NCBI GenBank assembly: GCA_012365435.1
Contig: GCA_012365435.1_4518.1
Direction: 5' to 3' (one strand)
DNA: 64,000 nucleotides
From: a phage
Part shown: positions 15,605 to 46,562 of the stretch, piece after piece
Numbering within the stretch: the first letter of the stretch is position 1
Layout of the letters: every line of letters begins with the position of its first letter
Notes under the pieces: model-generated
What the model saw: the letters and a program-made list of their open reading frames with translations, nothing else
The model's database searches: none
Told to the model about the DNA's origin: nothing
Translations under genes and position numbers: made by a program

Positions 15605-16705
15605 TTACGCTGTGAAGATTTTATCCCACATCGCAACAACTGCATCTCGATTATACTTCTTCCATACTGCTTCAGCACGTTTAACTCGAGCTTCGTATGT
15701 GTCAGTGAATTCTAATACAGCTTTTGTGTAAAGCGCAACTACTTCTTTCTTAGGAGTAGAGGAATCAATTTCTACACGCACAGTATCTGGGTCGTATTCG
15801 AATGTAGCATGAGGATAATCCTTAAAAACTAACTGGATTACAGGGACACCTTTAGAGATGGCTTCAATAGAACTATTCTCTACCGTGCCTGTGTCAGGAC
15901 ACGTATTAATAAGTGCTTTAGCTGTTTTAAGACGTTCCATGATTTCACTGTGTGGAGCATCAATAATAACAGGATATTTAGCTGGTGGTGCCCATTTGCT
16001 TGGACAATAACCAATACCATTTTCGCCTAGTGCTTTAATTGCTTCAAGAGCAACATCAGTGCGACGCATCTTAGTGTCATAACGTTGAGCACTAATAATC
16101 AAATCAGTTGCCGGGAGAACTTCTGGCTTTTCAGACAAACAAATAACCGGGTAGTCATCAGGTTCAAATAATGGATTTTCACGCCAGTAGTCATAATCAA
16201 TTTTGTCAGTAAGAGCTGAAGTCATATGACAATATTTACGTTCAAATTCACGGAATGCTTTAGTAGGAGCATAGCTCTTCCCACCGTTCTTGTGAATCTG
16301 GATAGTCTGATCCCAAATTTGAACAATACCACGAGACACCGGTTCAAACGGCGTAGCCATAAAATTCTTATGAACTTTAGAGAGTCCAGCATCTTTAATT
16401 GCTTGGACAGTTAGTTTAGTCGGTTCCATAGTAACAACAAAATCGTATTCATGGATGCCGGCTAGTTCAACAATCTTACGAGCCATAGTATAACTCATAC
16501 CTAGACTGAATTTAGTCAGATGACCAACAGGATGATGATTAACCTTCCAATCACCAAATGTGTCATTATCAAAACCGATATAATCAATATCGGCACCGAT
16601 AGAAACTAAATATTTCAACACATTTAAATGTACTGCTTCAAGACCACCTTGTACACGTTCTGGGTTAAATGGGACCGCACGAGATGGGATAAACATAACT
16701 TTCAT
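15605..16705 (-). CDS. Putative glycosyltransferase (GT-B-like), candidate DNA hmC sugar transferase
   Basis: 366 aa; GT-like C-terminal block (GVPVIQLV...); occupies the slot where T4 has gene 60/mobA; no alpha-gt/beta-gt elsewhere in window. Confidence 0.55.
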   Translation of the reverse strand: MKVMFIPSRAVPFNPERVQGGLEAVHLNVLKYLVSIGADIDYIGFDNDTFGDWKVNHHPVGHLTKFSLGMSYTMARKIVELAGIHEYDFVVTMEPTKLTVQAIKDAGLSKVHKNFMATPFEPVSRGIVQIWDQTIQIHKNGGKSYAPTKAFREFERKYCHMTSALTDKIDYDYWRENPLFEPDDYPVICLSEKPEVLPATDLIISAQRYDTKMRRTDVALEAIKALGENGIGYCPSKWAPPAKYPVIIDAPHSEIMERLKTAKALINTCPDTGTVENSSIEAISKGVPVIQLVFKDYPHATFEYDPDTVRVEIDSSTPKKEVVALYTKAVLEFTDTYEARVKRAEAVWKKYNRDAVVAMWDKIFTA

Positions 16706-28710: not shown

Positions 28711-29231
28711 TAATAACCTCGGTCTTGACGAGCAAAGTTTTCAGCATTCTTCAGATAATACAGTTTAAAGATTTCTTCAGCCGAAAGACCTATACCTTGG
28801 AACATATTCAGAACGAAATGGAGAATATCAATCATTTCAAACTTAATTTCCAGTTGGTCTTCAGGAGTCAGTTCATCGATACGACGATTTCGATATTCAG
28901 CATGTTGTGCTTTCCAAGGTTTCCATACAGCAGATGCATCTTTTTCACCATTGCTCATACCACCAAGTGAAGTCAGCAGTTCACGGAATTCATCATCAAT
29001 ATAATCTTTCTGATTACGCAGCCAATCAACAACATCACCGGCAGTAGCCAATTCATCAGGATGTTTGTTATGTTCAGGCTTGTCATTAGCCAGACGAACC
29101 TGTAAAGATTTCTGCATATCAAGCATTACCTGCAGTGGGTCTTTATCTTCGTGAATCAGAGCATTAAAATAAGCTTCTTCTGCTTTATCAACACCAGAAA
29201 TAAGTTGTGAACATTCATTAAAGTGCGCCAT
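28710..29231 (-). CDS. 56: dCTP pyrophosphatase gp56 (MazG-like)
   Basis: Matches T4 gp56 as recalled; start set to ATG (MAHFNEC) with AAGGA RBS; track start upstream is TTG. Confidence 0.75.
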   Translation of the reverse strand: MAHFNECSQLISGVDKAEEAYFNALIHEDKDPLQVMLDMQKSLQVRLANDKPEHNKHPDELATAGDVVDWLRNQKDYIDDEFRELLTSLGGMSNGEKDASAVWKPWKAQHAEYRNRRIDELTPEDQLEIKFEMIDILHFVLNMFQGIGLSAEEIFKLYYLKNAENFARQDRGY

Positions 29232-35997: not shown

Positions 35998-37162
35998 CGA
36001 AATCTTCCATTTCGTCAAGGTCGTTTTCAATATCTGCTGCAGACGGAGCATCAGAAGCTTTAACAGGAACTTTAGTTGTTGCTTTGCAATTAATAAGGTC
36101 GTTAACAGCGTCATCAACTTCTTTAATAGAAGAGATAGCACCTAGTTTATATTTAGTTTCAATTGCATCTCGGAAAGGTTTGTGTTTAAACAACGGTCCC
36201 CAGAATTCTACACAATCAGTAGCTTTAGCACGCCACGATTTCTCTTCACGAATCATTTCGCCTGTTTCTTCGTCAAGGAATTCACGAGCATACCAACCGG
36301 CTTTAGGCTTAACAACAAATCCAATTTCAGTTGCCATTTCTAACAAGCCACTGAATGGGTCGATACCACCATCAAAATTAACTGTGATTGGGAAAGTAGA
36401 TTTTTCTTTAACTGTACGAGATTTTTCTGCTTTCAACGTGAAGTCATAACCGGTCAATTCTGTACCTTCTTTAACCTGACGTTTAGAGATAAAAAATACC
36501 GTGTTGGCAGAATAAAGAATACCTGTACCACCGCCCATAATCTCTTTAGGATATAGTCCGCCGATTTCCATTGCTGTATGGTTTATTGCAACACATGGAA
36601 TATCTTTAATAGTCAGATAAGGAGTCACAATGCGGAACAGAGATTTAAGTGCCTTAGCACGAGACATATCACCTACGACTTTCTCGTTCAATGCATCTTC
36701 GGTTTCTTTCTTAGATGCAGTATTACCGATTGAATCGATAAAGATAATAACTTTATCACCGCGTTCAATCGCGTCAAGCTGATTAGTCATATCAACTTTA
36801 AGTTGTTCGACGGACTGAATTGGTGTATGAACTACGCGATCCAAATCAACACCCATTGAACGAAAATAAGATTCTGAAGCACCAAATTCAGAATCATAGA
36901 ACAAACAAATTGCATCTTTATATTTCTTCATATACGCTGCAACCATAGTTAGTCCAAACAGCGTTTTAAAGTGTTTAGAAGGAGCAGCAAAAATAGTTAA
37001 GCCTGATTGCAATCCTGCATTCAGAGCACCACCTAGTGCGATATTCAACATCGGAATACGAGTAGGGACTTCATCACGATTATTAAACAGCTTAGACTTA
37101 GTCAAGTCTGCAGTCATTTTAGAAGTAGAAGCTTTAATCAGACGAGATTTTAAATCAGACAT
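35990..37162 (-). CDS. uvsX: Recombinase UvsX (RecA-like)
   Basis: 390 aa; RecA-fold motifs; acidic C-terminal tail; matches T4 UvsX length and position. Confidence 0.9.
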   Translation of the reverse strand: MSDLKSRLIKASTSKMTADLTKSKLFNNRDEVPTRIPMLNIALGGALNAGLQSGLTIFAAPSKHFKTLFGLTMVAAYMKKYKDAICLFYDSEFGASESYFRSMGVDLDRVVHTPIQSVEQLKVDMTNQLDAIERGDKVIIFIDSIGNTASKKETEDALNEKVVGDMSRAKALKSLFRIVTPYLTIKDIPCVAINHTAMEIGGLYPKEIMGGGTGILYSANTVFFISKRQVKEGTELTGYDFTLKAEKSRTVKEKSTFPITVNFDGGIDPFSGLLEMATEIGFVVKPKAGWYAREFLDEETGEMIREEKSWRAKATDCVEFWGPLFKHKPFRDAIETKYKLGAISSIKEVDDAVNDLINCKATTKVPVKASDAPSAADIENDLDEMEDFDE

Positions 37163-37260
37163 TGTATTTTTCCATAGGCATCATTATATTTTACTCATGT
37201 TTAAAAGATAAGATGATTATATACTAAGGGTTATACAGCATTTAAAACTTTAAATGGCTC

Positions 37261-37809
37261 TTAACGAGCCCATTTAATGATTTCTGTAATCAAATAATTA
37301 CGTTCGCTTGCATTAAATCCTATAACTTTGTTAGCACCATCATGATTAAGTAATTGATACGTTTGGATTTTGTTATGAATTGCAAACTCTTCAAAATATG
37401 AAATGACTGTATTAAAACCGAATGAAGACAAAGTAATAAGGTCGTCTTCAAAACTTTCAGTCATTTCGTTACGTGTTAAAATAATTGTGAACACATCATG
37501 GTTTTGGCAAAGACGAACATAATCCTGTTCATAAACATCAAGAACCGAGTCCGCATCTTGTCGAATACGTCCATAAACCCAGTTACTAATATATCCACGG
37601 TCTAACAGATAAATCTTAGTAGGGTCTAAATAATTCAACATCGTTTCGAAACAACCAACTTCATTTCGAGACTTAACATCGAAACGTCCATCAACTGTTC
37701 GTTTAGGGAAATCAATCTTTACATATCTTTCACTAATTTCCATTATGTCATTAATGAAAGTTGTTTTACCGGCATTATCCGGGCCATCTACTAAAATAAT
37801 TTTAGCCAT
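37261..37809 (-). CDS. P-loop kinase, thymidylate/cytidylate kinase-like
   Basis: 182 aa; Walker A VDGPDNAGKTT; LLDRGY resembles DRY lid motif of NMP kinases; sits in the T4 beta-gt slot. Confidence 0.55.
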   Translation of the reverse strand: MAKIILVDGPDNAGKTTFINDIMEISERYVKIDFPKRTVDGRFDVKSRNEVGCFETMLNYLDPTKIYLLDRGYISNWVYGRIRQDADSVLDVYEQDYVRLCQNHDVFTIILTRNEMTESFEDDLITLSSFGFNTVISYFEEFAIHNKIQTYQLLNHDGANKVIGFNASERNYLITEIIKWAR

Positions 37810-37810
37810 T

Positions 37811-38710
37811 TTATTCCTCGATTACGACATCTTCGTATTTAGGTATATTATACGGCGAAGAAATTAAAGCGTTAAAGTAGATGAACTCACCAAGACCTGG
37901 ATGGAATACTTCTTCAGGATTTTCGAAATATTGAATCTTCGGACGTCCTTTAAGAATTTGATAGTACTCAGTTTTAGTTGGTTTAAAAATTCGAATCAGC
38001 GCTTCTTCAGGATACTTATTTCTGTCAAAGCTATTATTTGGATCGGTTATATAAAGCGGTTGACCTAATTGAATTGCGCATTCAACCACTTGTTCAAAAC
38101 GATAACACGGGTCACTAATTCGAAATGGATGAAAAATACCATCTAGATGAATAGGAGCCAAATCACCTACAAGACGCTGCATGACGGAAGGACGTATAAC
38201 TTTCTGCGTTACGATAATCTTATTACCATCGGCACCTGCGTTAACCAGCACTTCCTTTTGACGTTCATTCAACACAGTAGTTTGAAGTGAACGATTAACA
38301 GACAACATGTCGGTTTTTAAGAATTCATCAATATAAAAACGTGGTTTATTAGGGTCTGCAGTGATATTGAAATTGAATTCTACGTCAAAAGCGCCATCAT
38401 ATCCAGTGATATCTGTGATTAGAAAATCACAATCATAATAAGCAATTAATGAATCAACCACAAATTCATTTTCAGACCAGAAATATTTACGAGTGTTATA
38501 CGCGTTATCTTTATACCATAATGGAACAAACTTAAATTCCGGGAAAAGACGTTCACATTCTTTAATATCAGATGCATTACGTGGATATGTAATCACATCA
38601 CCTGGATTAGCACGGTGCAAATGAAGTTGGAAGTTGCCATCCTTAAGGATAGCATACTGTCCAGTTTCATAAGACCGCATACTCAAGATTGGTACGCGGA
38701 AAATAGCCAT
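37811..38710 (-). CDS. Hypothetical protein (299 aa) in the T4 beta-gt slot
   Basis: ORF track; no recognisable similarity to T4 beta-glucosyltransferase. Confidence 0.5.
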   Translation of the reverse strand: MAIFRVPILSMRSYETGQYAILKDGNFQLHLHRANPGDVITYPRNASDIKECERLFPEFKFVPLWYKDNAYNTRKYFWSENEFVVDSLIAYYDCDFLITDITGYDGAFDVEFNFNITADPNKPRFYIDEFLKTDMLSVNRSLQTTVLNERQKEVLVNAGADGNKIIVTQKVIRPSVMQRLVGDLAPIHLDGIFHPFRISDPCYRFEQVVECAIQLGQPLYITDPNNSFDRNKYPEEALIRIFKPTKTEYYQILKGRPKIQYFENPEEVFHPGLGEFIYFNALISSPYNIPKYEDVVIEE

Positions 38711-39426
38711 TAGTCAAGGAATCCTTTAACATAATCAAAATCACGTTCAAACACATGGGCACTTACCATGGTATGAGTATAATCACCAACTTCTACGCCG
38801 CATTCGTTAGCGATATAATGAAGTAATTTTCCTTGGAGATAAAAATCCAACTGCATAACAACAGCACAGTTCTGAGAACGCATATGACAGTGGGTATAAA
38901 GCTTACCATCGCGAATATAATAAGTCACTGAGTCAGTACATGGATATTCAAGTGTTTCGTCCGAATCAAGCAAAGCCTGATCAGAACTTTCTAGAATTTG
39001 GAACACAACTCTTCGAGAGTTAGGTTTCTCTTTAAGTTCTTTTAGAAGAGCTGGTAATTGGGCCGCAATGCGAGGACCATAGAAAGTGTTGAAGTTCGCC
39101 GGCAAAGCGTCTGATTTAGGTTTAGAAATAAATTTAGCGACATTAGGATATGCCTTAAACGCTTCTTCTGCATCAGTACCACCAGAAATCATAAACTTCC
39201 AGAAGTCTTCGGCATATTCATAAGAGATGCGGTTAATACGTGGGTCGGTCATTTTGAATGATGATGGATTGTCAACAACTACTGTCATGGACCTGATTTC
39301 ATTACAACGTCCAATACGAGAATCAGTTACGAATTCAGGATTTTCTAAAATTTCACGATTGACTGCTTTAAATGCGGCTTGAAAATCTGCGGCTTTGATA
39401 TATTTCATTGTGTTATGTTTTCCCAT
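38710..39426 (-). CDS. 42: dCMP hydroxymethylase gp42 (thymidylate-synthase fold)
   Basis: 238 aa; block YPCTDSVTYYIRDGKLY...MRSQNCAVVMQLDF parallels FMCTNTVQYLIRDKK...MRSNDVVFGF of T4 gp42 as recalled; GAGGT RBS. Confidence 0.65.
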   Translation of the reverse strand: MGKHNTMKYIKAADFQAAFKAVNREILENPEFVTDSRIGRCNEIRSMTVVVDNPSSFKMTDPRINRISYEYAEDFWKFMISGGTDAEEAFKAYPNVAKFISKPKSDALPANFNTFYGPRIAAQLPALLKELKEKPNSRRVVFQILESSDQALLDSDETLEYPCTDSVTYYIRDGKLYTHCHMRSQNCAVVMQLDFYLQGKLLHYIANECGVEVGDYTHTMVSAHVFERDFDYVKGFLD

Positions 39427-39468
39427 GTTTACCTCAATACAATTTATTATATACTCAATTCGTAAAGC

Positions 39469-39708
39469 TTATTTGAATTTCTTGGCAATGTTGATATAAC
39501 GTAAAGCTTCAGAATCTATACTTCCAAGAACACTATGAAGGAATGCATCAGTGTAGTATTCCAATTGAACAGGTTCTTTAATCACTTTAGCCGCTTTGGT
39601 TTCAAACAGGCCCATAAGGGCCTTTTTAAGAATTTGTTCGTTAGTGTTCAGTTTTATAGTCAAAATCTCTTCATTAAGTTGGTGGTTAAAAGTTTTTCTA
39701 GAAATCAT
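39469..39708 (-). CDS. Hypothetical protein (79 aa), not Imm-like
   Basis: ORF track; hydrophilic, unlike membrane protein Imm that occupies this slot in T4. Confidence 0.45.
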   Translation of the reverse strand: MISRKTFNHQLNEEILTIKLNTNEQILKKALMGLFETKAAKVIKEPVQLEYYTDAFLHSVLGSIDSEALRYINIAKKFK

Positions 39709-40865
39709 TCCGGGTACCTCAAAGCGTCATCAGAGTTAGTTATATCAATAATAGATATAGAGTTTTCTGATAACCCATTTTTAGATAACTGACGTTTATA
39801 ATATCTTTCACAATATGTACACGTCGTCCCGCAGATTTCATTAGCACAATCGAAATCTGGATGTCTGAACCACCTTTTTTCTAAAAAACCGTCTAACAAT
39901 GAGGTTTCAATATTTACTGTATGTGAAAACTCAGTCTCATTTTCAAGAGTGAAAATAGTCTCTAAAGGCTTCCACAGTTCTAACAAATTACCTTCAAACT
40001 TTTCAGAAGCGTATGCTTCAAGAACTTTCAAAATGTAGTCTGTGCTACCTGTACGTCCTGAAACTTTGAATTGAGTGATACCAATATCATTATAAAGTTT
40101 CAAATCTTGAGGACGAACAAAACGAGTTCTCAGCCAGTTAAATGGGTCTGTATCACGAGCTTTAATACAGTGCTGCATAGGATATCCATTTAAGGATTTA
40201 GCATCATCAGCGGTAACATCAGTACTATGGAAAATATAGCAAGAGTCACGATAGCTACAATGTGTTGTATACCCTTTACCAGCATTAGAACAGAACTCAT
40301 TTACAAGAACTTCAAATATTATATTGTTCTTATTGCAAAACTCTGCTGCACGCTTCAGGAAAGAAACTGAACGGTTCTTATGAATTCCGCAACAGACTTT
40401 TTTGATGTTATATTGGTCGTGCAAGTATTTGATTTGAGTTACAGCATCAACATGTAGAATTGTTGAAACTTCAATCTCAATGTCTTTATTGACTTCACGA
40501 ACAATTTCCATAACAACAGGGTTAGCGATAGTAATACGCCATACGCCTATTGACCAAAGATACTGAACATAATCCTGAATAGCTTTCTTCTTCCACTCAA
40601 CTAGTTCTCTTTTTGAACCAGGATTTATCGTGTTGAGTGTATAGTTAAAGCAAATACCTAATTCGTTACAACGTTTAACGTAGTCTTCTAACATCTTTTT
40701 GTCAACGTCAGGAAGCCTAAAATCAGGTCTGGCTGCTACAAAAGCCATTTCTCTTGTAGAGCCGTATACTTCGTTTATCAAGCTATTAGGATAAGTTTTA
40801 TTGAGCTCTACGATTTTATCAAGAAGAGCTAAATCAAAATTCGTTCCGATTTTAAAAGTATTCAT
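39705..40865 (-). CDS. U32-family-like Cys-rich enzyme (putative Fe-S dependent; function unknown)
   Basis: 386 aa; blocks NPVVMEIVRE and EIEVSTILHVDAV resemble DPGLIMLVRE / PIHLSVQANAV of U32 proteins; Cys clusters VCCG..FCS..HCS..SC and C-x4-C-x3-C-x2-C. Confidence 0.5.
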   Translation of the reverse strand: MNTFKIGTNFDLALLDKIVELNKTYPNSLINEVYGSTREMAFVAARPDFRLPDVDKKMLEDYVKRCNELGICFNYTLNTINPGSKRELVEWKKKAIQDYVQYLWSIGVWRITIANPVVMEIVREVNKDIEIEVSTILHVDAVTQIKYLHDQYNIKKVCCGIHKNRSVSFLKRAAEFCNKNNIIFEVLVNEFCSNAGKGYTTHCSYRDSCYIFHSTDVTADDAKSLNGYPMQHCIKARDTDPFNWLRTRFVRPQDLKLYNDIGITQFKVSGRTGSTDYILKVLEAYASEKFEGNLLELWKPLETIFTLENETEFSHTVNIETSLLDGFLEKRWFRHPDFDCANEICGTTCTYCERYYKRQLSKNGLSENSISIIDITNSDDALRYPE

Positions 40866-40921
40866 TTTTTTGCATCTCGCGTTAATTGATGCGATGGTTT
40901 TTGCAGGTCTTACTTAAATTA

Positions 40922-41323
40922 TTATAGATTCGGTTTATATGATTTAAATGTTTCGAATTCGCCTTTATTCATAAGAGCTTTGAATTCGTCAGGACGCATA
41001 GCTTTGTCGTCGATAATCCAATCATATACTGGTTTATGTGTTAGCAAATTATGGTACTTCAAGCCAATGTTTGCCAAGTTCTGAATCAGACTTGGGAGAA
41101 TGTCAATTGCTATACGACCAGGACCTACTGACTTCATACCACGAGCAGTGTAAAGCGTTATGGTATGCCCTGCATCATACAGGGCATTAATGGCAGACAC
41201 CATTTCGACGTCCGGTTTGAAGTTCACGTAATCACGATTGTTATTCCACTCTGTTATACAATCATCGACATCAAAACAAAGATTAAGCATGTTTTCTACA
41301 CGGTGCATTAGATTCGTTCCCAT
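40922..41323 (-). CDS. HAD-superfamily small phosphatase (KdsC-like)
   Basis: 133 aa; HAD motif I FDVDDCIT near N-terminus; coordinates from ORF track. Confidence 0.55.
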   Translation of the reverse strand: MGTNLMHRVENMLNLCFDVDDCITEWNNNRDYVNFKPDVEMVSAINALYDAGHTITLYTARGMKSVGPGRIAIDILPSLIQNLANIGLKYHNLLTHKPVYDWIIDDKAMRPDEFKALMNKGEFETFKSYKPNL

Positions 41324-42993
41324 TGATGAGTGATATCGCCACCGATTGGACGATAGGAAACACCAGTTTCTTTATCAGTTAGTACCCATTTACCAGGATT
41401 TTTTGTAATCAGAGTAGCCGTTACAGGTTCTGCTACGTCATAACTAATAGAGCCGTCTTGAAGTACACGGCCCATGTTACGTAATTGCTTAGTCAGAAGT
41501 TCCATACCTTTATAATATGCGGCTACCGCTTTAAGTGGATTATTCTTGAAATAACCACCTAATGCAATCCAGATAATTGCTACTGCCAAATGATGATACT
41601 CGTTAAACGAACTCATCTTTCCATATTTGTAAACTAATGGATTGATGTTAATAGTCACATTACAAGTTGTTTCATCAATAGTAAACTGTCCCCAGGTCGG
41701 ATTAGCATTGAATTCATCATAACCTGAAACAGCATAAAGCACTTTAGCTTCATCATATAATTTTGGCCCGTAAATCTTGGTTTCACCAAAATATCCACGA
41801 GGGTCGATAAACTTGACTTCGCCGTTATCAGTAATCATAGTATTACTGAAGTTCGGGTCACCGTGAATAACAGAGTACTGTCCCTGAGAACGATTATGAT
41901 AACGAATAAGGTGTTCTAAAGCTTGTTTCAGCATTGGCTTCAGACGTCCAATCTTAGTGTAGTTCACGTGTGTGATTTTACCAAATGAATCAATCAATGG
42001 CTGAATGCTTTCACAACGATCAATAACTTTCGTATAGAATTCTTTAGTGAAATCACGACGAACAGTTTCAGGACTTACAAAATAAGTGTCTGTGCTGAAT
42101 TTCAGTGCATCTAAAATTGCATCAACAATTTGTGGACGAGCAAGACTTGATTTGGATTTAATATATTCAAATGCTGGCTTACCTTTAATACGTTCCATTT
42201 CAAAATTATTTTCATTTACCGAAACTAACTGAGGAACTGAATCTGATTTCACTTTCAAATACCATGAAATCTCATCTTTTTGAAGAGCTCGACCTTGTTC
42301 GGTTAACGCGAATTTAGTTACAGTTTCTTCGCCAATTTCAACTGCATTAAAACTACGATTAAGTTCACGAACTTCATGGGCCTTTTCAAGTTTAGGCATA
42401 TCACCTAAATCAATTAGATTCATAAGCTCTGATTTATTGAATGCACTGCCGTAAAGGAATTCTACGAAATCACGTCCTTTGCAGTATTCATGAATTTCCT
42501 CATCAGTAGAACCCATGTAGAATTCCCAGTCTTTGAACTGATAAATTCCTACAACATTACCGCCTGTTGAACCTACGTTAGTGATATTTTCACCATCGAA
42601 ATTATATCGACATTCATCACCCTTAACATAGATTGCGTTAACATTCCAAGACCATGAACCAAAATCAGGAATAATATCACACCAGTTAACAATTACGTTA
42701 TGGCCATCTAAATCTTTGTATAATTTAGCAAGAGCATAAGCAGAACCATACGCTTCATCAACTGTACGAATAGTCACATTGAACCCTTCTTGCTCGCAAT
42801 AAGCTCGAACAGTTTCAGCAAATTTTGAATGAACTACTACAATAATTTCATCTGCGCCAAGGTCAGAATAAATTGTATACAAATTGCTCAGAATAGTGTC
42901 TTGTTTATAGTTAACAAGAACTTTTGGAATATGATGCGTTATTGGATACAAACGAGTTGCCAGTCCAGCACCAAGAATAACAGCTTTTTTCAT
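41308..42993 (-). CDS. Bifunctional sugar-1-phosphate nucleotidyltransferase / APH-like sugar kinase
   Basis: 561 aa; N-terminal MKKAVILGAGLATRLYPIT (RmlA/MurU-type NTase); C-terminal VIHGDPNFSNTMI and FIDPRG (APH/choline-kinase-type catalytic motifs). Confidence 0.7.
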   Translation of the reverse strand: MKKAVILGAGLATRLYPITHHIPKVLVNYKQDTILSNLYTIYSDLGADEIIVVVHSKFAETVRAYCEQEGFNVTIRTVDEAYGSAYALAKLYKDLDGHNVIVNWCDIIPDFGSWSWNVNAIYVKGDECRYNFDGENITNVGSTGGNVVGIYQFKDWEFYMGSTDEEIHEYCKGRDFVEFLYGSAFNKSELMNLIDLGDMPKLEKAHEVRELNRSFNAVEIGEETVTKFALTEQGRALQKDEISWYLKVKSDSVPQLVSVNENNFEMERIKGKPAFEYIKSKSSLARPQIVDAILDALKFSTDTYFVSPETVRRDFTKEFYTKVIDRCESIQPLIDSFGKITHVNYTKIGRLKPMLKQALEHLIRYHNRSQGQYSVIHGDPNFSNTMITDNGEVKFIDPRGYFGETKIYGPKLYDEAKVLYAVSGYDEFNANPTWGQFTIDETTCNVTININPLVYKYGKMSSFNEYHHLAVAIIWIALGGYFKNNPLKAVAAYYKGMELLTKQLRNMGRVLQDGSISYDVAEPVTATLITKNPGKWVLTDKETGVSYRPIGGDITHQWERI

Positions 42994-43174
42994 GTTGTGG
43001 TCCTCATTGGTAAGTAGGTGTATTGTACACTATTCTAGTTAAAGCATTCATACTTTGCTTGTAGTCCAATCATAATCCATCCAATTACAAGTGTTGGAAT
43101 CATTACTGGAGCCGTTAAGCTCCAGTAGATAGTCATGACAAGCATCAATAGTAAAAGTCCTATTGTTATTGCTT

Positions 43175-43810
43175 TCATTGTTCGCCTCGTAACATGGCAC
43201 CTAGTGCACCGCCTGGGTGGAACTTAAGGAAGTCATTAGAGGTAAATCCACGTTCAGACGAAAGGTTGATAGCGAACGTATCGATAAGCGCTAACAACAA
43301 TGTAGTGGACATGGTCGGAGCCAGAGAATTCTCATCAACCTCTACCGCGATGCCTGTACAGAAAGAGTAATCAAAAAGGGCTTCATTTTCTTGCGGAATG
43401 TCCGGGTTACAATGCAACAGAATCTGTTTGACATTTGGACGAATCATTTTAAGATGCTTAGCCACGCCTATCATTTCTTCAGTTTTACCAGAACGACTAA
43501 TATGAATCAACACATCATTAGGCGCAATGAATCCTGCATCACCGTGAGAATAATGCCCGGTGTTCAAGTACATACTTGGGATACCGAGTGAAGCAAATGT
43601 CTCAGAAGCTTTAGTTGCAATATTAGCATTCTTACCAACACCTGTAATAATTACTCGGCTTTCATAATTACTAAGTCCAGGGCGTCGAAGAGTTTCTAGA
43701 ATAGCATTATAACGAGCAGGGTTTTGACTAATTACTTTGGCCATAGCGGCCAAAGAAGAAGCTTGTTTTATAATTGCGTCAATAGCGATAGTAATAGGAG
43801 TAGTTTTCAT
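43175..43810 (-). CDS. SIS-domain sugar-phosphate isomerase, KdsD/GutQ-like (putative D-arabinose-5-phosphate isomerase)
   Basis: 211 aa; ITGVGKNANIA...ISRSGKTEE...LAPTMSTT...FHPGGALG mirrors the KdsD SIS domain motifs as recalled; no CBS domains. Confidence 0.7.
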   Translation of the reverse strand: MKTTPITIAIDAIIKQASSLAAMAKVISQNPARYNAILETLRRPGLSNYESRVIITGVGKNANIATKASETFASLGIPSMYLNTGHYSHGDAGFIAPNDVLIHISRSGKTEEMIGVAKHLKMIRPNVKQILLHCNPDIPQENEALFDYSFCTGIAVEVDENSLAPTMSTTLLLALIDTFAINLSSERGFTSNDFLKFHPGGALGAMLRGEQ

Positions 43811-43850
43811 ATTTCTCTCATTTAATTAGTTTACCGTCCATGGCATTATA

Positions 43851-46562
43851 TCAAAAATCGAACATATCGAACAGAGATGCTTTCTTCTCGTAATCGAGTT
43901 TCGCTGCTGATGTGAATCCTTCAAGTGGTTTAATAAATGTCTTCTCAAGGAGAACAGTGTAGTCCATCCAATGAAGTACGTCGTCTTTAATTAAATCTGT
44001 GATTTCAGTGCCAGAAGGCCATGCGATACATTTATCACCGAATGGGTTTCCTTCACGTAAAGGCAGAACATATACTTTTTCACCTTCTACAACTTGTGGT
44101 GCATCAATATTACCTTTGATAGCTCGGTTATATGTCAAAATTCCACGAATATGGAACGGGCATTTAGGTCCTGGATATCCACCCACATCGTATTTAGCAA
44201 TGTTATTCGCAGAAGATACTGACGCGATGCTAATATAATTCAATTGACGGAATTCTTTTTCAAACTCTTTAAAATATTCTTGTAATGATTCTTCACCTTC
44301 TTGAAGCATACGACGAATACATTCTTTAAGAGCTTTCTGTACTGCTTTAGGGGTCGAAGATTTCTGAGTCTCTAGACCCATGATTTTGAGTTTAGGCTCA
44401 GCGTATCTGGTTCCTTCCATATCCCACACGTTTAATGCATAACGTTTCTTACCAGTCCAGAATCCACCAATACCTTTAGAACCGAGTGGAGGACCAGCGA
44501 TAGCTTCTCGGTCCATGAACATCAAATGTTGCTTATTATTCATGTATTCGCACATTTCACGGAAACCTCTATCAATAGCAGGTTCCATACGTTCACGTGC
44601 AAACTTATCTAAGAAGTCTACCCAGTGGTTGGTATCACGGAATTTAGATTCACCAACCTTATCGATAATTTTATCAGCAGATACGTAAATAGAGTCTGTA
44701 TCACCATAAAGAACGAAAGCTTCACCTTCTGTACCACAAACTTCATTCAGATATTCATTAACTTTACGTTCAATCCACTGTAAAGCCATTTGACCGAATG
44801 TTGTGATTGCAGTTGCATTACGCAAATCATAATAACGGAACCAAACGTTTCCAAGTGCACCATAAAGCGAGTTGATGAGCAATTTACGGTTAATCTGTGC
44901 AGTCATACCTGCAACTTCAGTACGTTGAGCTCTAAACAACATTTCATTAAGAGATTTAGAAGACAACTTTTTAATCTTTTCTTTAATCTCATCGCTGAAG
45001 TCGAAACGATAATCAACATCTAATGGTTCGTCAACAGAAAGATTAGGATTATGCAATGCCTCTTTAATTATTTCGCCATTACGTTGAGCCGCAAGCATGT
45101 AACCTTTATGTTCTTTACGTTGATTAAAGACCTTAGTGATTTCAGTTGGAACTACACCATCACGGTCTTTATAATACATCATGCCGTTAGGAGAACAACT
45201 GTACACATCTGAAGGACGTTCAGCGATTGCGTTAATATAATCATGCAATGGAGCTACTTTAAACGTTCCTGCTATTGTTTCCGGGCTAATATTCACTTGG
45301 CGAATAATACTTGGATACAGAGATGTAAGGTCGAAACTCATTACATATTTGTATCGATTTGGAATAGGTTCCTTAACAAAAGCGCCAGGATAAGGTTGAA
45401 CCGGGTGAGAACGACCTTGTGGAATCACCTTGTTCTGCTCTTTAAGGCTATTAAAAATAATAGCATCCCATGTTTTAATTGGGCTAAACACAGATTGAAT
45501 CTGTATCTTAGCATAATAACCCATGTCCAAACTCAAGTTGATGAACTGACGCTTAGAATCAATTTGCAATACACGATACACGTCGATAATGTTATAAGAA
45601 ATATACCGTTGGTGATTGCTTTCACGAAGCTTAGAAATAGGGCCGTCATATTTCAGTTTACCAACGTTCAATTCAAATTCTGAAATGTAATCCAGAGAAT
45701 ACGATGGTTGATTGGTAAAAGAGAATTTTTTGTAAAGGTCAATGTAATCAAGAACAGAGATACCGAACAATGTAATGATTTCACGAGAACCATACATGTT
45801 TTCGATAACTTTAACACGAGTTTTACGATGTGGTGATAAACGTTTCGCAGTAGATTCGCCAAAAATATTCTTGATTCGGTTATACACATATGGAATATCA
45901 AATGACTCAACGTTCCATCCAGTCAAAATGACAGGAGTTTTCTGTTGCCAGAAGTTGAGATATTCCATCAACAATTCTTTTTCGTTATCGAACGGCATAT
46001 AAATGATTTTATCGATAATTTCAGATGGAACTTCATCACCGCCTTGTTCTTGAAGCTTTGCAGCGATTTCAATAGACCATTCTTCTACATTACCATATGG
46101 AGAATTCAATAGATCAAATACGTAGAACCTGTCGTCAATTGAGTCATAATGGGTGATAGCATCAATCGGATGTTTTGCTTGTGACGGCTCAGGGAACCCA
46201 TCCGGAGATGTTACTTCGATGTCGAAGTTAGCCACACGAATTTTTGTATGGTCGTATTTGATTTCATAGTTATAAGTGTCAGACAAATACGCCAATTTGA
46301 AATCGTCCATGCCAAGTGCTTCAAGTCCGATATCTTCCATGCGTTTAATCCATTGGGAGGCATCACGCATATTAGCGAACAACTTACGAGTACACGGCTT
46401 ACCGTAGATATCGAAATATTTCGTAGCCTGACTTTCTGGACAATGAGCAAACAGTGATGGTTTATATTCTACTTCACGAGTACGTTCACGGCCATTAGAA
46501 TCGATGTAACGTTCAAAAATTGAATCACCAATCTGTTCAACCGTTAAGTAAAATTCTTTCAT
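43851..46562 (-). CDS. 43: DNA polymerase gp43 (family B)
   Basis: 903 aa; sequence matches RB69 gp43 as recalled (MKEFYLTVEQIGDSIFERY..., exo DIE and pol DTDS motifs). Confidence 0.95.
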   Translation of the reverse strand: MKEFYLTVEQIGDSIFERYIDSNGRERTREVEYKPSLFAHCPESQATKYFDIYGKPCTRKLFANMRDASQWIKRMEDIGLEALGMDDFKLAYLSDTYNYEIKYDHTKIRVANFDIEVTSPDGFPEPSQAKHPIDAITHYDSIDDRFYVFDLLNSPYGNVEEWSIEIAAKLQEQGGDEVPSEIIDKIIYMPFDNEKELLMEYLNFWQQKTPVILTGWNVESFDIPYVYNRIKNIFGESTAKRLSPHRKTRVKVIENMYGSREIITLFGISVLDYIDLYKKFSFTNQPSYSLDYISEFELNVGKLKYDGPISKLRESNHQRYISYNIIDVYRVLQIDSKRQFINLSLDMGYYAKIQIQSVFSPIKTWDAIIFNSLKEQNKVIPQGRSHPVQPYPGAFVKEPIPNRYKYVMSFDLTSLYPSIIRQVNISPETIAGTFKVAPLHDYINAIAERPSDVYSCSPNGMMYYKDRDGVVPTEITKVFNQRKEHKGYMLAAQRNGEIIKEALHNPNLSVDEPLDVDYRFDFSDEIKEKIKKLSSKSLNEMLFRAQRTEVAGMTAQINRKLLINSLYGALGNVWFRYYDLRNATAITTFGQMALQWIERKVNEYLNEVCGTEGEAFVLYGDTDSIYVSADKIIDKVGESKFRDTNHWVDFLDKFARERMEPAIDRGFREMCEYMNNKQHLMFMDREAIAGPPLGSKGIGGFWTGKKRYALNVWDMEGTRYAEPKLKIMGLETQKSSTPKAVQKALKECIRRMLQEGEESLQEYFKEFEKEFRQLNYISIASVSSANNIAKYDVGGYPGPKCPFHIRGILTYNRAIKGNIDAPQVVEGEKVYVLPLREGNPFGDKCIAWPSGTEITDLIKDDVLHWMDYTVLLEKTFIKPLEGFTSAAKLDYEKKASLFDMFDF

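Follow-up and report, generated by a model that had tools for sequence, protein, structure and literature searches.

A divergent U32-family protein as a candidate O2-independent cytosine hydroxylase in the arabinosyl-5-hydroxycytosine locus of an RB69-type phage

Introduction

A stretch of phage DNA of 64,000 nucleotides (GenBank assembly GCA_012365435.1, contig GCA_012365435.1_4518.1), all of which was analyzed and which is called the window below, carries genes for an activated pentose beside a gene for a U32-family protein (RB69 gp50; 39705..40865, minus strand, 386 amino acids [aa]), in a row that lies between a ThyA homologue and the B-family DNA polymerase (43851-46562). The locus raises the question of whether these genes form one sugar-nucleotide pathway, as an original prediction made from the sequence alone had proposed for five of them, or whether the U32 protein does something else. 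We consider the whole best explained, with a probability of about 0.6, as an arabinosyl-5-hydroxycytosine cluster with two distinct submodules, one for the sugar donor and one for the acceptor base. At slightly better than even odds, judged from its family, its cysteines, and its gene neighborhoods, the U32 protein would be an iron-sulfur (Fe-S) enzyme that hydroxylates a deoxypyrimidine nucleotide at C5, with prephenate and without O2, and not a sugar enzyme.

The window comes from an RB69-type Mosigvirus. By megablast, the 4.5-kb region in question had nucleotide identities of 97.9% with RB69 and 98.6% with O157 typing phage 3, and 153 phage records covered at least 80% of it; the gene order from the polymerase to uvsX was the same as in Bas47 and RB69.

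Arabinose was detected in RB69 DNA by Thomas 2018 (PMC6024577), who singled out the polymerase-uvsX module, recognized ORF053c and ORF052c as one gene of 561 aa, and proposed that this gene, with the SIS protein ORF055c, makes UDP-arabinose. According to Lee 2026 (PMC13326640), the base in RB69-type phages is arabinosylated 5-hydroxycytosine (5hoC), with an ether link at C5, and RB69 gp48, a ThyA homologue, makes 5-hydroxy-dCMP from O2, as determined by 18O2 labeling, and flavin. The flavin is bound loosely and must be reduced, and gp48 with its deoxynucleoside monophosphate (dNMP) kinase alone formed 5-hydroxydeoxycytidine (5hodC) in Escherichia coli. Arabinosylated 5hoC was shown experimentally for Acinetobacter phage DLP3 in the same study, and the DLP3 transferases used UDP-arabinofuranose (UDP-Araf) as the donor in vitro. 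Related clusters are RB69 gp45-gp55, HY126 Afh, and DLP3 gp76-83. The UDP-arabinose module is thus already published, proposed in 2018 and supported by biochemistry in HY126, RB69, and DLP3 in 2025-2026, so that the core idea of the original prediction is right but not new. The prediction had named no established phage donor pathway of this composition; this exact module had been proposed by Thomas 2018, and its activities were assigned in He 2026 and Lee 2026. In the literature searched, which did not extend to He 2026 and Mahler 2025, we found nothing that connects phage 5hoC with U32, chorismate mutase, or prephenate and no supported function for the U32 gene or for two small genes of the locus encoding 79 aa and 47 aa. 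The nearest precedent is that of phage CmoA/CmoX, where prephenate is used for carboxymethyl-cytosine.

Results

The U32 protein

That the gene encodes a U32-like, Cys-rich enzyme, as first described, was borne out. Pfam Peptidase_U32 (PF01136) matched at 7.3e-11 (42.2 bits against a cutoff of 22.4), and 10 cysteines, including a C-terminal CX4CX3CX2C, were invariant in 46 homologues of 46 to 86% identity. The AlphaFold2 model (pLDDT, 92) had as its top fold match in the Protein Data Bank (PDB) 5d88, the U32 protein Mk0906; a PDB sequence search gave no match even at an E value of ≤1, and 5d88 was found by the fold search only. Three cysteines, C203, C209, and C233, aligned with C169, C176, and C193 of UbiU, which are [4Fe-4S] ligands established by experiment, and they equal C169, C176, and C192 of RlhA and C170, C177, and C193 of TrhP.

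All three relatives are Fe-S hydroxylases that depend on prephenate and need no O2. RlhA makes 5-hydroxycytidine in 23S rRNA (ho5C2501) and requires a second group of cysteines in its C-terminal part; TrhP makes 5-hydroxyuridine in tRNA (ho5U34) in a prephenate-dependent manner, parallel to the O2-dependent TrhO; and UbiU/UbiV carry out the O2-independent hydroxylation of ubiquinone precursors with prephenate as the oxygen donor. A member of a family with cytosine-C5 hydroxylases here has an O2-dependent enzyme of the same kind only two genes away, which prompted a test of the hydroxylase hypothesis by sequence, fold, and gene neighborhood. Databases name U32 proteins "peptidase" or "putative protease," by which this one would be a collagenase-like peptidase. 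We regard that as extremely improbable: the family name is historical, the characterized members are Fe-S hydroxylases, what is invariant in the protein is a set of cysteines in motifs of the Fe-S type, and the genomic context is one of nucleotide and DNA modification.

As a hydroxylase, the U32 protein would most simply act on dCMP and yield 5-hydroxy-dC(MP), by a route parallel to that of the neighboring O2- and flavin-dependent ThyA-like 5-hydroxy-dCMP synthase, and modified DNA could then still be made in the anoxic gut. Prephenate would be supplied by a phage chorismate mutase in most sister genera and by host PheA/TyrA in this Mosigvirus.

The U32 protein was also very conserved, all 222 phage matches being at least 80% identical, while the nucleotidyltransferase (NTase)-kinase of the same locus was 42 to 57% identical in Proteus, Klebsiella, and Shewanella phages. 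Such conservation beside a divergent NTase-kinase suggests that the U32 gene either is under strong constraint or was exchanged recently.

Gene neighborhoods of U32

Chorismate mutase makes prephenate. A Pfam-verified AroQ chorismate mutase adjoined U32 in Serratia phage LC53, Enterobacter phage Entb_45, Shewanella phage Thanatos-2, a Klebsiella phage, and Proteus phage phiP4-3, and likewise, among the matches of an IMG/VR survey, in TG1 and PM2; the genera concerned are Winkler-, Kanagawa-, Braga-, Teguna-, and Mosugukvirus. The chorismate mutase of Entb_45 has the accession UTY64282, and the U32 protein of LC53 has the accession UYM28692. Among the 15 Straboviridae loci in IMG/VR, chorismate mutase stood beside U32 in 13 and the ThyA homologue co-occurred with U32 in all 15. 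In Thanatos the U32-chorismate mutase pair was relocated together, away from ThyA.

Two of these phages deserve separate description. Thanatos-2 (L006, 2574-8391) had the order NTase-kinase, 196-aa protein, ThyA, glycosyltransferase, kinase, U32, and chorismate mutase, without a SIS isomerase or a recognizable small HAD protein; the published Thanatos analysis offered no hypothesis on where the hydroxyl of its cytosine comes from. Klebsiella phage Biddle_MM4 (L011, 5001-6918) had the closest non-Mosigvirus U32 protein (89% identical), with the ThyA homologue directly after it.

Outside the Straboviridae, 46 loci with U32 proteins of 40 to 58% identity were sampled, dereplicated at 90% identity into 34 lineages, and inspected over flanks of 8 to 10 kb. 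A glycosyltransferase of the gp46:47 type (GT1) was near U32 in 22 of the 34 lineages and directly abutted it in 7, and a thymidylate kinase (TMK)-like kinase was near it in 24. The arabinose genes were less frequent (NTase-kinase in 12/34 and SIS isomerase in 9/34), chorismate mutase was found in 7 lineages, 3-deoxy-D-arabino-heptulosonate 7-phosphate (DAHP) synthase, in some cases fused to chorismate mutase, in 6, and a ThyA homologue in 1. Further neighbors were a MazG-like pyrophosphatase, dCMP deaminase, dUTPase/DCD, a TET-associated DNA glycosyltransferase (TAGT), NT5C, deoxynucleoside kinase (dNK), and nucleoside deoxyribosyltransferase. One contig (L049) carried all of the RB69 set except ThyA, that is, GT1, SIS, NTase-kinase, TMK-like kinase, HAD phosphatase, and U32, and added a DAHP-synthase::chorismate-mutase fusion. 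These counts indicated that U32 tracks a hydroxyl-requiring glycosyltransferase and nucleotide metabolism, not the arabinose genes. Outside the Straboviridae, U32 may take the place of the ThyA-type hydroxylase. The single five-gene sugar module first proposed therefore has to be redrawn, since U32 associates with the hydroxyl-dependent glycosyltransferase, chorismate mutase, and nucleotide kinases whether arabinose genes are nearby or not, and the 79-aa open reading frame (ORF) is without an assignable role.

The same neighborhoods bear on the possibility that the five genes belong to a single sugar-nucleotide pathway, in which the U32 protein would act on the sugar or the sugar nucleotide as a reductase, dehydratase, or epimerase, for example, by setting the furanose form or the configuration. 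Its gene does lie inside one codirectional array, with the HAD phosphatase gene on one side and that of the ThyA homologue on the other, BASEL labels Bas47_0149 a "putative enzyme involved in UDP-arabinose biosynthesis," Table 1 of Lee 2026 offers "sugar or heterocycle reductase" as a guess for gp50, and four clusters (L019, L046, L049, and L050) hold U32 together with SIS, NTase-kinase, epimerase, and KdsC-like phosphatase genes. However, to the extent that Lee 2026 relays He 2026, AfhE- and AfhF-type enzymes suffice to convert arabinose-5-phosphate (A5P) to UDP-arabinose, and on that account no sugar step is left for U32. Moreover, U32 is missing from Acinetobacter and Dhakavirus phages that carry the arabinose genes, arabinosylated 5hoC having been shown in DLP3, while at least 10 U32 lineages have GT1 and the TMK-like kinase without SIS or NTase-kinase. 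The characterized U32 enzymes hydroxylate aromatic or pyrimidine rings and none acts on a sugar, and a chorismate mutase or DAHP synthase beside U32 makes no sense in a pentose pathway. A sugar-modifying role thus appears unlikely.

The constant company of U32 and the ThyA homologue in the Straboviridae, together with the loose binding of flavin by the ThyA-like enzyme and its need for reduced flavin, could also mean that the U32 protein is an accessory of that hydroxylase, an Fe-S redox partner for flavin reduction or electron delivery. We consider this less likely still. No ThyA homologue lay within 8 to 10 kb of U32 in 33 of the 34 non-Straboviridae lineages, Acinetobacter and Dhakavirus phages use the ThyA-type hydroxylase without U32, gp48 and the dNMP kinase needed no further phage protein to form 5hodC in E. 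coli, and the association with chorismate mutase suggests a prephenate cosubstrate rather than electron transfer.

Hydroxylation of RNA is a further alternative, in which the U32 protein would modify host or phage RNA (compare rRNA C2501 and tRNA U34) and tune translation during infection. RlhA is the closest characterized relative by profile comparison, and the characterized U32 enzymes of nucleic acids all act on RNA. Yet the long RNA-binding extension that brings RlhA to 653 aa is missing from the phage protein, with its 386 aa, and U32 is tightly linked to genes for DNA glycosyltransferase, dNMP-type kinases, dCMP deaminase, MazG/dCTPase, dUTPase/DCD, NT5C, dNK, and nucleoside deoxyribosyltransferase, which makes an RNA substrate very improbable.

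Several observations weigh against the proposal that the U32 protein is a prephenate-dependent nucleotide hydroxylase. The fourth Fe-S ligand did not align, C158, C177, and C192 being invariant as well. The hhalign match to RlhA was remote (E value, 1.4e-5; probability, 80%), and those to TrhP (10%) and UbiU (5%) were too weak for placement. Chorismate mutase is absent from the window. The flanks inspected extended over 8 to 10 kb, so a more distant ThyA homologue may lie on the metagenomic contigs, and in several metagenomic clusters (L019 and L049) sugar genes also lie beside U32, by which base chemistry and sugar chemistry are not fully separated. In Biddle_MM4, U32 occurs without chorismate mutase, the 79-aa ORF, or a SIS isomerase, indicating that the first two are dispensable for U32. 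Dhakaviruses of E. coli, Bp7 among them, have the arabinose/ThyA cluster but no U32 in a facultatively anaerobic host, and U32 must therefore be dispensable in at least some settings. Finally, Lee 2026 mentioned tRNA hydroxylation pathways and drew no connection to gp50. With 18.5 bits against the NCBIfam UbiU cutoff of 440, the window protein is, as far as its sequence goes, a separate and divergent subfamily outside the characterized orthologous groups, which lowers the likelihood that it is RlhA or TrhP itself but not that of a similar mechanism.

Other genes were seen beside U32. A class I-beta DAHP synthase, fused in several cases to chorismate mutase, adjoined it in L049 (7302-8357), L046, L047, L050, L060, L019 (9145-9891), and L035, contigs of uncultured phages; these phages thus encode the step at which the shikimate pathway begins as well as the one at its branch point. 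A conserved cellular operon in BRC1, Tannerella, Phocaeicola, and a Bacillota metagenome-assembled genome (L080, 6929-11086; L081, 7872-11080; L082, 3044-7137; L002, 7135-11098) joined GP88 (PF17338), a guanylate-kinase::S-adenosylmethionine (SAM)-methyltransferase, a protein of ~265 aa, and the U32 subfamily. In L002 it was followed by NT5C, a PnuC-like transporter, dNK, a radical-SAM/SPASM protein, a second U32, and nucleoside deoxyribosyltransferase. This operon may be a defense system or may encode a pathway for 5-hydroxy- or 5-methoxy-nucleotides. Radical-SAM/SPASM proteins recurred in the vicinity of U32 and of TMK-like and MazG-like genes, in L001 (1314-2249, on a 466-kb contig of the PolIII-alpha type) and in L002 (14160-15185, Bacillota) and could be maturases or redox partners. 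In phage contigs without a visible TET/JBP gene (L020, 9098-10000; L043, ~11086), a TAGT homologue lay directly downstream of U32, which may supply the hydroxyl for TAGT-type enzymes there.

Host distribution and oxygen

The 222 U32-positive records of isolated phages had Enterobacterales or Shewanella as hosts. Acinetobacter was apparently absent among them, and 57 Acinetobacter phages with arabinose genes appeared to lack U32. Acinetobacter is a strict aerobe. Among species-representative genomes, the eight U32 matches, in isolates or metagenome-assembled genomes, fell in Erysipelotrichales, Bacillota, Lachnospiraceae, Romboutsia (two), Tannerella, Phocaeicola, and BRC1; all but that in BRC1 (7/8) belong to what we take to be lineages of obligate anaerobes. 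A strict rule by which a facultatively anaerobic host implies U32 was considered and rejected, since the E. coli Dhakavirus Bp7 lacks it.

It is about an even bet that gp50-type proteins are the first U32 hydroxylases with a dedicated role in modifying DNA, serving in enterobacterial T4-like phages as a backup for the ThyA-type synthase under anoxia, often with prephenate from a phage chorismate mutase, and as the sole hydroxylase in many phages of strict anaerobes. The odds appear equally balanced for the related suggestion that, for DNA modification, phages of strict anaerobes use a module reduced to kinase, glycosyltransferase, and U32, to which some add a DAHP-synthase::chorismate-mutase fusion of their own. 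The Bacteroidota and Bacillota U32 operons with a guanylate-kinase::methyltransferase hint at additional chemistry of pyrimidine nucleotides with a 5-hydroxy or 5-methoxy group.

Donor-synthesis genes

The sugar half of the locus can be read with far more assurance. Identity to RB69, domain matches, and published activities agreed with the view that the genes upstream of U32 are the donor-synthesis half of a nonglucose cytosine hypermodification system, and the reading of the SIS, fusion, HAD, and GT-B steps, with activities taken from the literature, is very probably correct.

The SIS protein (43175..43810, minus strand, 211 aa; homologue of RB69 gp55) had been called a KdsD/GutQ-type isomerase, and its profile matches place it within that clade. 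Pfam SIS matched at 1e-10, above the gathering cutoff, and the NCBIfam families KpsF/GutQ (2e-32) and KdsD (7e-31) were ahead of other SIS families by ~25 orders of magnitude, the HexR, AgaS, and HxlB types scoring 1e-6 or worse. PDB matches were 3etn (2.6e-25), 5uqi (4e-23), and E. coli KdsD, 2xhz (3.5e-19), and PHROG 5670, "arabinose 5-phosphate isomerase," matched at 4e-116. The protein is single-domain, without the tandem CBS domains of KdsD/GutQ, and the NCBIfam profile match stopped at position ~153-202; because the CBS pair is absent, the scores of 113 and 108 bits remained under the full-length equivalog cutoffs of 204 and 505. The motif FHPGGALG, with which the protein was said to end, is present near the C terminus but not at its very end. 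Lee 2026 assigned gp55 as an A5P isomerase.

The gene at 41308..42993 (minus strand, 561 aa; RB69 gp52:53, HY126 AfhE-type) encodes a fusion, as foreseen, of a sugar-1-phosphate NTase of the RmlA/MurU/GlmU N-terminal type with a probable APH/choline-kinase-like kinase. Its N terminus matched Pfam NTP_transferase (PF00483) over residues 3 to 99 (1.3e-9; 38.4 bits against a cutoff of 21.2) as well as 18 NCBIfam NTase families, PDB 1jyk matched at 2.4e-5, and the GxGxxTRL-loop motif GAGLATRL, LGAGLATRLYPIT, was seen in the translation. Residues 308 to 409 gave weak kinase matches (Fructosamin_kin and EcKL), below the Pfam cutoffs, and the translation contained the kinase motif IHGDPNFSN...KFIDP, an HxDxxxxN loop with a downstream metal-binding D; Lee 2026 reported 3ham and 6hwl as structural matches for the kinase domain.

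The small HAD phosphatase (40922..41323, minus strand, 133 aa; RB69 gp51, AfhF-type), likewise predicted as such, was identical to PDB 9iqw at 128 of 129 aligned residues and matched 1xpj at 5e-10, with motif I as FDVDDCIT. TIGR01689, a capsule-biosynthesis phosphatase family, matched below its cutoff (4e-13), and the protein groups with the EcbF/BcbF capsule phosphatases. Judging from the PDB entry series, 9iqw probably comes from He 2026, as does 9iqc, the match of the ThyA homologue described below.

The SIS, NTase-kinase, and HAD proteins alone would make the donor. In the proposed pathway, the SIS isomerase would divert ribulose-5-phosphate to D-arabinose-5-phosphate, the C-terminal kinase domain of the fusion would phosphorylate A5P at C1 to arabinose-1,5-bisphosphate (Ara-1,5-P2), the HAD phosphatase would remove the 5-phosphate to leave arabinose-1-phosphate (Ara-1-P), and the N-terminal domain of the fusion would join Ara-1-P and UTP to UDP-Araf. 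In the account that Lee 2026 gives of He 2026 on HY126, gp52:53 is an A5P 1-kinase and UDP-arabinose pyrophosphorylase, gp51 is a phosphatase that needs Mg and takes Ara-1,5-P2 to Ara-1-P, and the order is A5P to Ara-1,5-P2 to Ara-1-P to UDP-Araf. The route first suggested, from ribulose-5-phosphate to an NDP-arabinose, was therefore right in its start at A5P and in its end, but free arabinose is not an intermediate, and the phosphatase does not precede the kinase; in the published order the kinase acts first.

Acceptor and transfer genes

The gene next to the module, taken in the original prediction for the dCMP hydroxymethylase gene 42, encodes instead a flavin- and O2-dependent 5-hydroxy-dCMP synthase of the ThyA superfamily (RB69 gp48; 38710..39426, minus strand). 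It was identical to PDB 9iqc at 233 of 238 residues (98%) and carried E143, N169, and D177 (E. coli ThyA numbering), the published signature of 5-hydroxy-dCMP synthases (Lee 2026). Because MAFFT misplaced a 2-residue gap, the signature was read manually from the invariant anchors P145-C146 and R166-S167 (window E-Y-P-C and R-S-Q-N-C-A-V-V-M-Q-L-D). The acceptor is thus 5-hydroxycytosine, made by the ThyA-homologue hydroxylase, rather than the 5-hydroxymethylcytosine (5-hmC) that had been assumed, and the earlier assignment of arabinosyl-hmC was called erroneous in a 2026 AEM paper.

The statement that the window has no glucosyltransferase was misleading, since it has two GT-B arabinosyltransferase homologues. 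The first (RB69 gp46:47; 37811..38710, minus strand) had no Pfam match and is a proposed arabinosyltransferase 1, acting onto 5-hydroxycytosine; its homologues abutted U32 in unrelated phage contigs. The second (15608..16705, minus strand) was 97.5% identical over 366 aa to RB69 ORF003c/gp3 by tblastn. The structural assignment and proposed roles of gp46:47 are from Lee 2026, and a role for the second enzyme was proposed both there and in Thomas 2018. Both transferases would arabinosylate 5-hydroxycytosine. A TMK-like nucleotide kinase (RB69 gp45; 37261..37809, minus strand), recognized by a weak dTMP kinase P-loop match and by its structural assignment in the literature, may phosphorylate the modified dNMP. 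A gp56-type dCTP pyrophosphatase (28713..29231, minus strand), 64% identical by tblastn to the annotated Thanatos-2 dCTPase, would supply dCMP for hydroxylation. The second arabinosyltransferase and the dCTPase also being inside the 64-kb window, nearly the entire modification system lies within it.

Gene arrangement and small ORFs

All five predicted ORFs were present at exactly the coordinates claimed, co-oriented on the minus strand. All five are real, but a sixth had been overlooked, a hydrophobic mini-ORF of 47 aa (43035..43178, minus strand) at the position of RB69 ORF054c. Its start overlaps the SIS stop, and it encodes a strongly hydrophobic membrane miniprotein amid a cytoplasmic sugar pathway; ORFs of 46 to 48 aa between the SIS and NTase-kinase genes were also seen in LC53, TG1, PM2, and Bas47.

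The 79-aa ORF (RB69 gp49; 39469..39708, minus strand), apparently translationally coupled to U32, belonged to PHROG 8601, had no Pfam or NCBIfam match even at an E value of ≤10, and had homologues only in TG1 (3e-15) and PM2 (1e-10). A degenerate chorismate mutase was considered for it and rejected: CM_2 gave no match at an E value of ≤10, whereas its positional neighbors in five phages scored 8e-8 to 2e-11, and TG1 and PM2 carry a homologue of the ORF together with a separate, genuine chorismate mutase. Mosigviruses probably lost the chorismate mutase.

Overlaps joined the SIS gene and the 47-aa ORF (4 nucleotides [nt]), the NTase-kinase and HAD genes (16 nt), and U32 and the 79-aa ORF (4 nt). 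The GC content of the module resembled that of the flanks, giving no signal of a compositional island or of horizontal transfer. In a scan of 37000-44200, the number of promoter-like sites (23) did not exceed expectation (27), and the minus strand showed no terminators. The ORFs of 561 and 299 aa were unbroken in the window; the old RB69 GenBank record splits both through sequencing errors.

Discussion

The RB69, HY126, and DLP3 clusters represent the same locus, and the sugar genes of the window show no material difference from theirs. The value of the sugar half is therefore one of confirmation and correction, in that the base is hydroxy- and not hydroxymethylcytosine, the order of steps is changed, and the transferases are present. 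By analogy only, its logic is that of the ADP-L-glycero-D-manno-heptose pathway (GmhA, HldE, and GmhB), which also uses a SIS isomerase, anomeric phosphorylation, removal of the distal phosphate by a HAD enzyme, and nucleotidyl transfer, with kinase and NTase fused in one protein; GmhB-like fold matches for the HAD phosphatase were reported by Lee 2026. In contrast to that pathway, the window system has a pentose as its substrate, UDP as its nucleotide, and the domain order NTase then kinase, and its kinase is probably APH/choline-kinase-like where that of HldE is ribokinase-like. The SIS protein is similarly short to the single-domain A5P isomerase of Bacteroides fragilis (3etn), unlike the E. 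coli KdsD/GutQ enzymes (2xhz), which have 328 aa with tandem CBS domains.

The strategy and neighborhood are those of the T4 gp42/glucosyltransferase hmC system, in which a ThyA-superfamily enzyme gives a C5-oxygenated dCMP and a GT-B enzyme then acts on DNA. Here, however, the acceptor arises by hydroxylation and not by hydroxymethylation, the ether is directly on C5, the donor UDP-Araf must be made by the phage, and a candidate second, O2-independent hydroxylase is present. That candidate shares with RlhA, TrhP, and UbiU the U32 TIM barrel and the three aligned Fe-S cysteines and, as a subfamily, a genomic coupling to prephenate supply through chorismate mutase and DAHP-synthase-chorismate-mutase genes; with RlhA it also shares an extra C-terminal Cys cluster. 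It differs in a variant signature, EF...C-x5-C-Y-I, with a CX5C spacing where theirs is CX6C, in the fourth ligand, for which there was no aligned cysteine, and in its presumed substrate, a free deoxynucleotide or DNA instead of RNA or quinone. The proposed pairing of U32 with ThyA would mirror the paired O2-independent and O2-dependent routes of TrhP/TrhO and UbiUV/UbiIHF.

If the U32 protein is indeed an O2-independent hydroxylase of cytosine, this would explain how gut phages keep an antirestriction DNA modification without oxygen, and it would provide a reason for the chorismate mutase genes of T4-like phages. The chemistry in which prephenate serves as the oxygen donor would then extend beyond RNA and quinones to the precursors of DNA. 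Moreover, the combination of TMK-like kinase, GT1, and U32 would be a genomic marker for glycosylated 5-hydroxypyrimidine DNA in the uncultured phages of anaerobes, a marker relevant to phage therapy, to the evasion of restriction and CRISPR, and to the sequencing of modified DNA.

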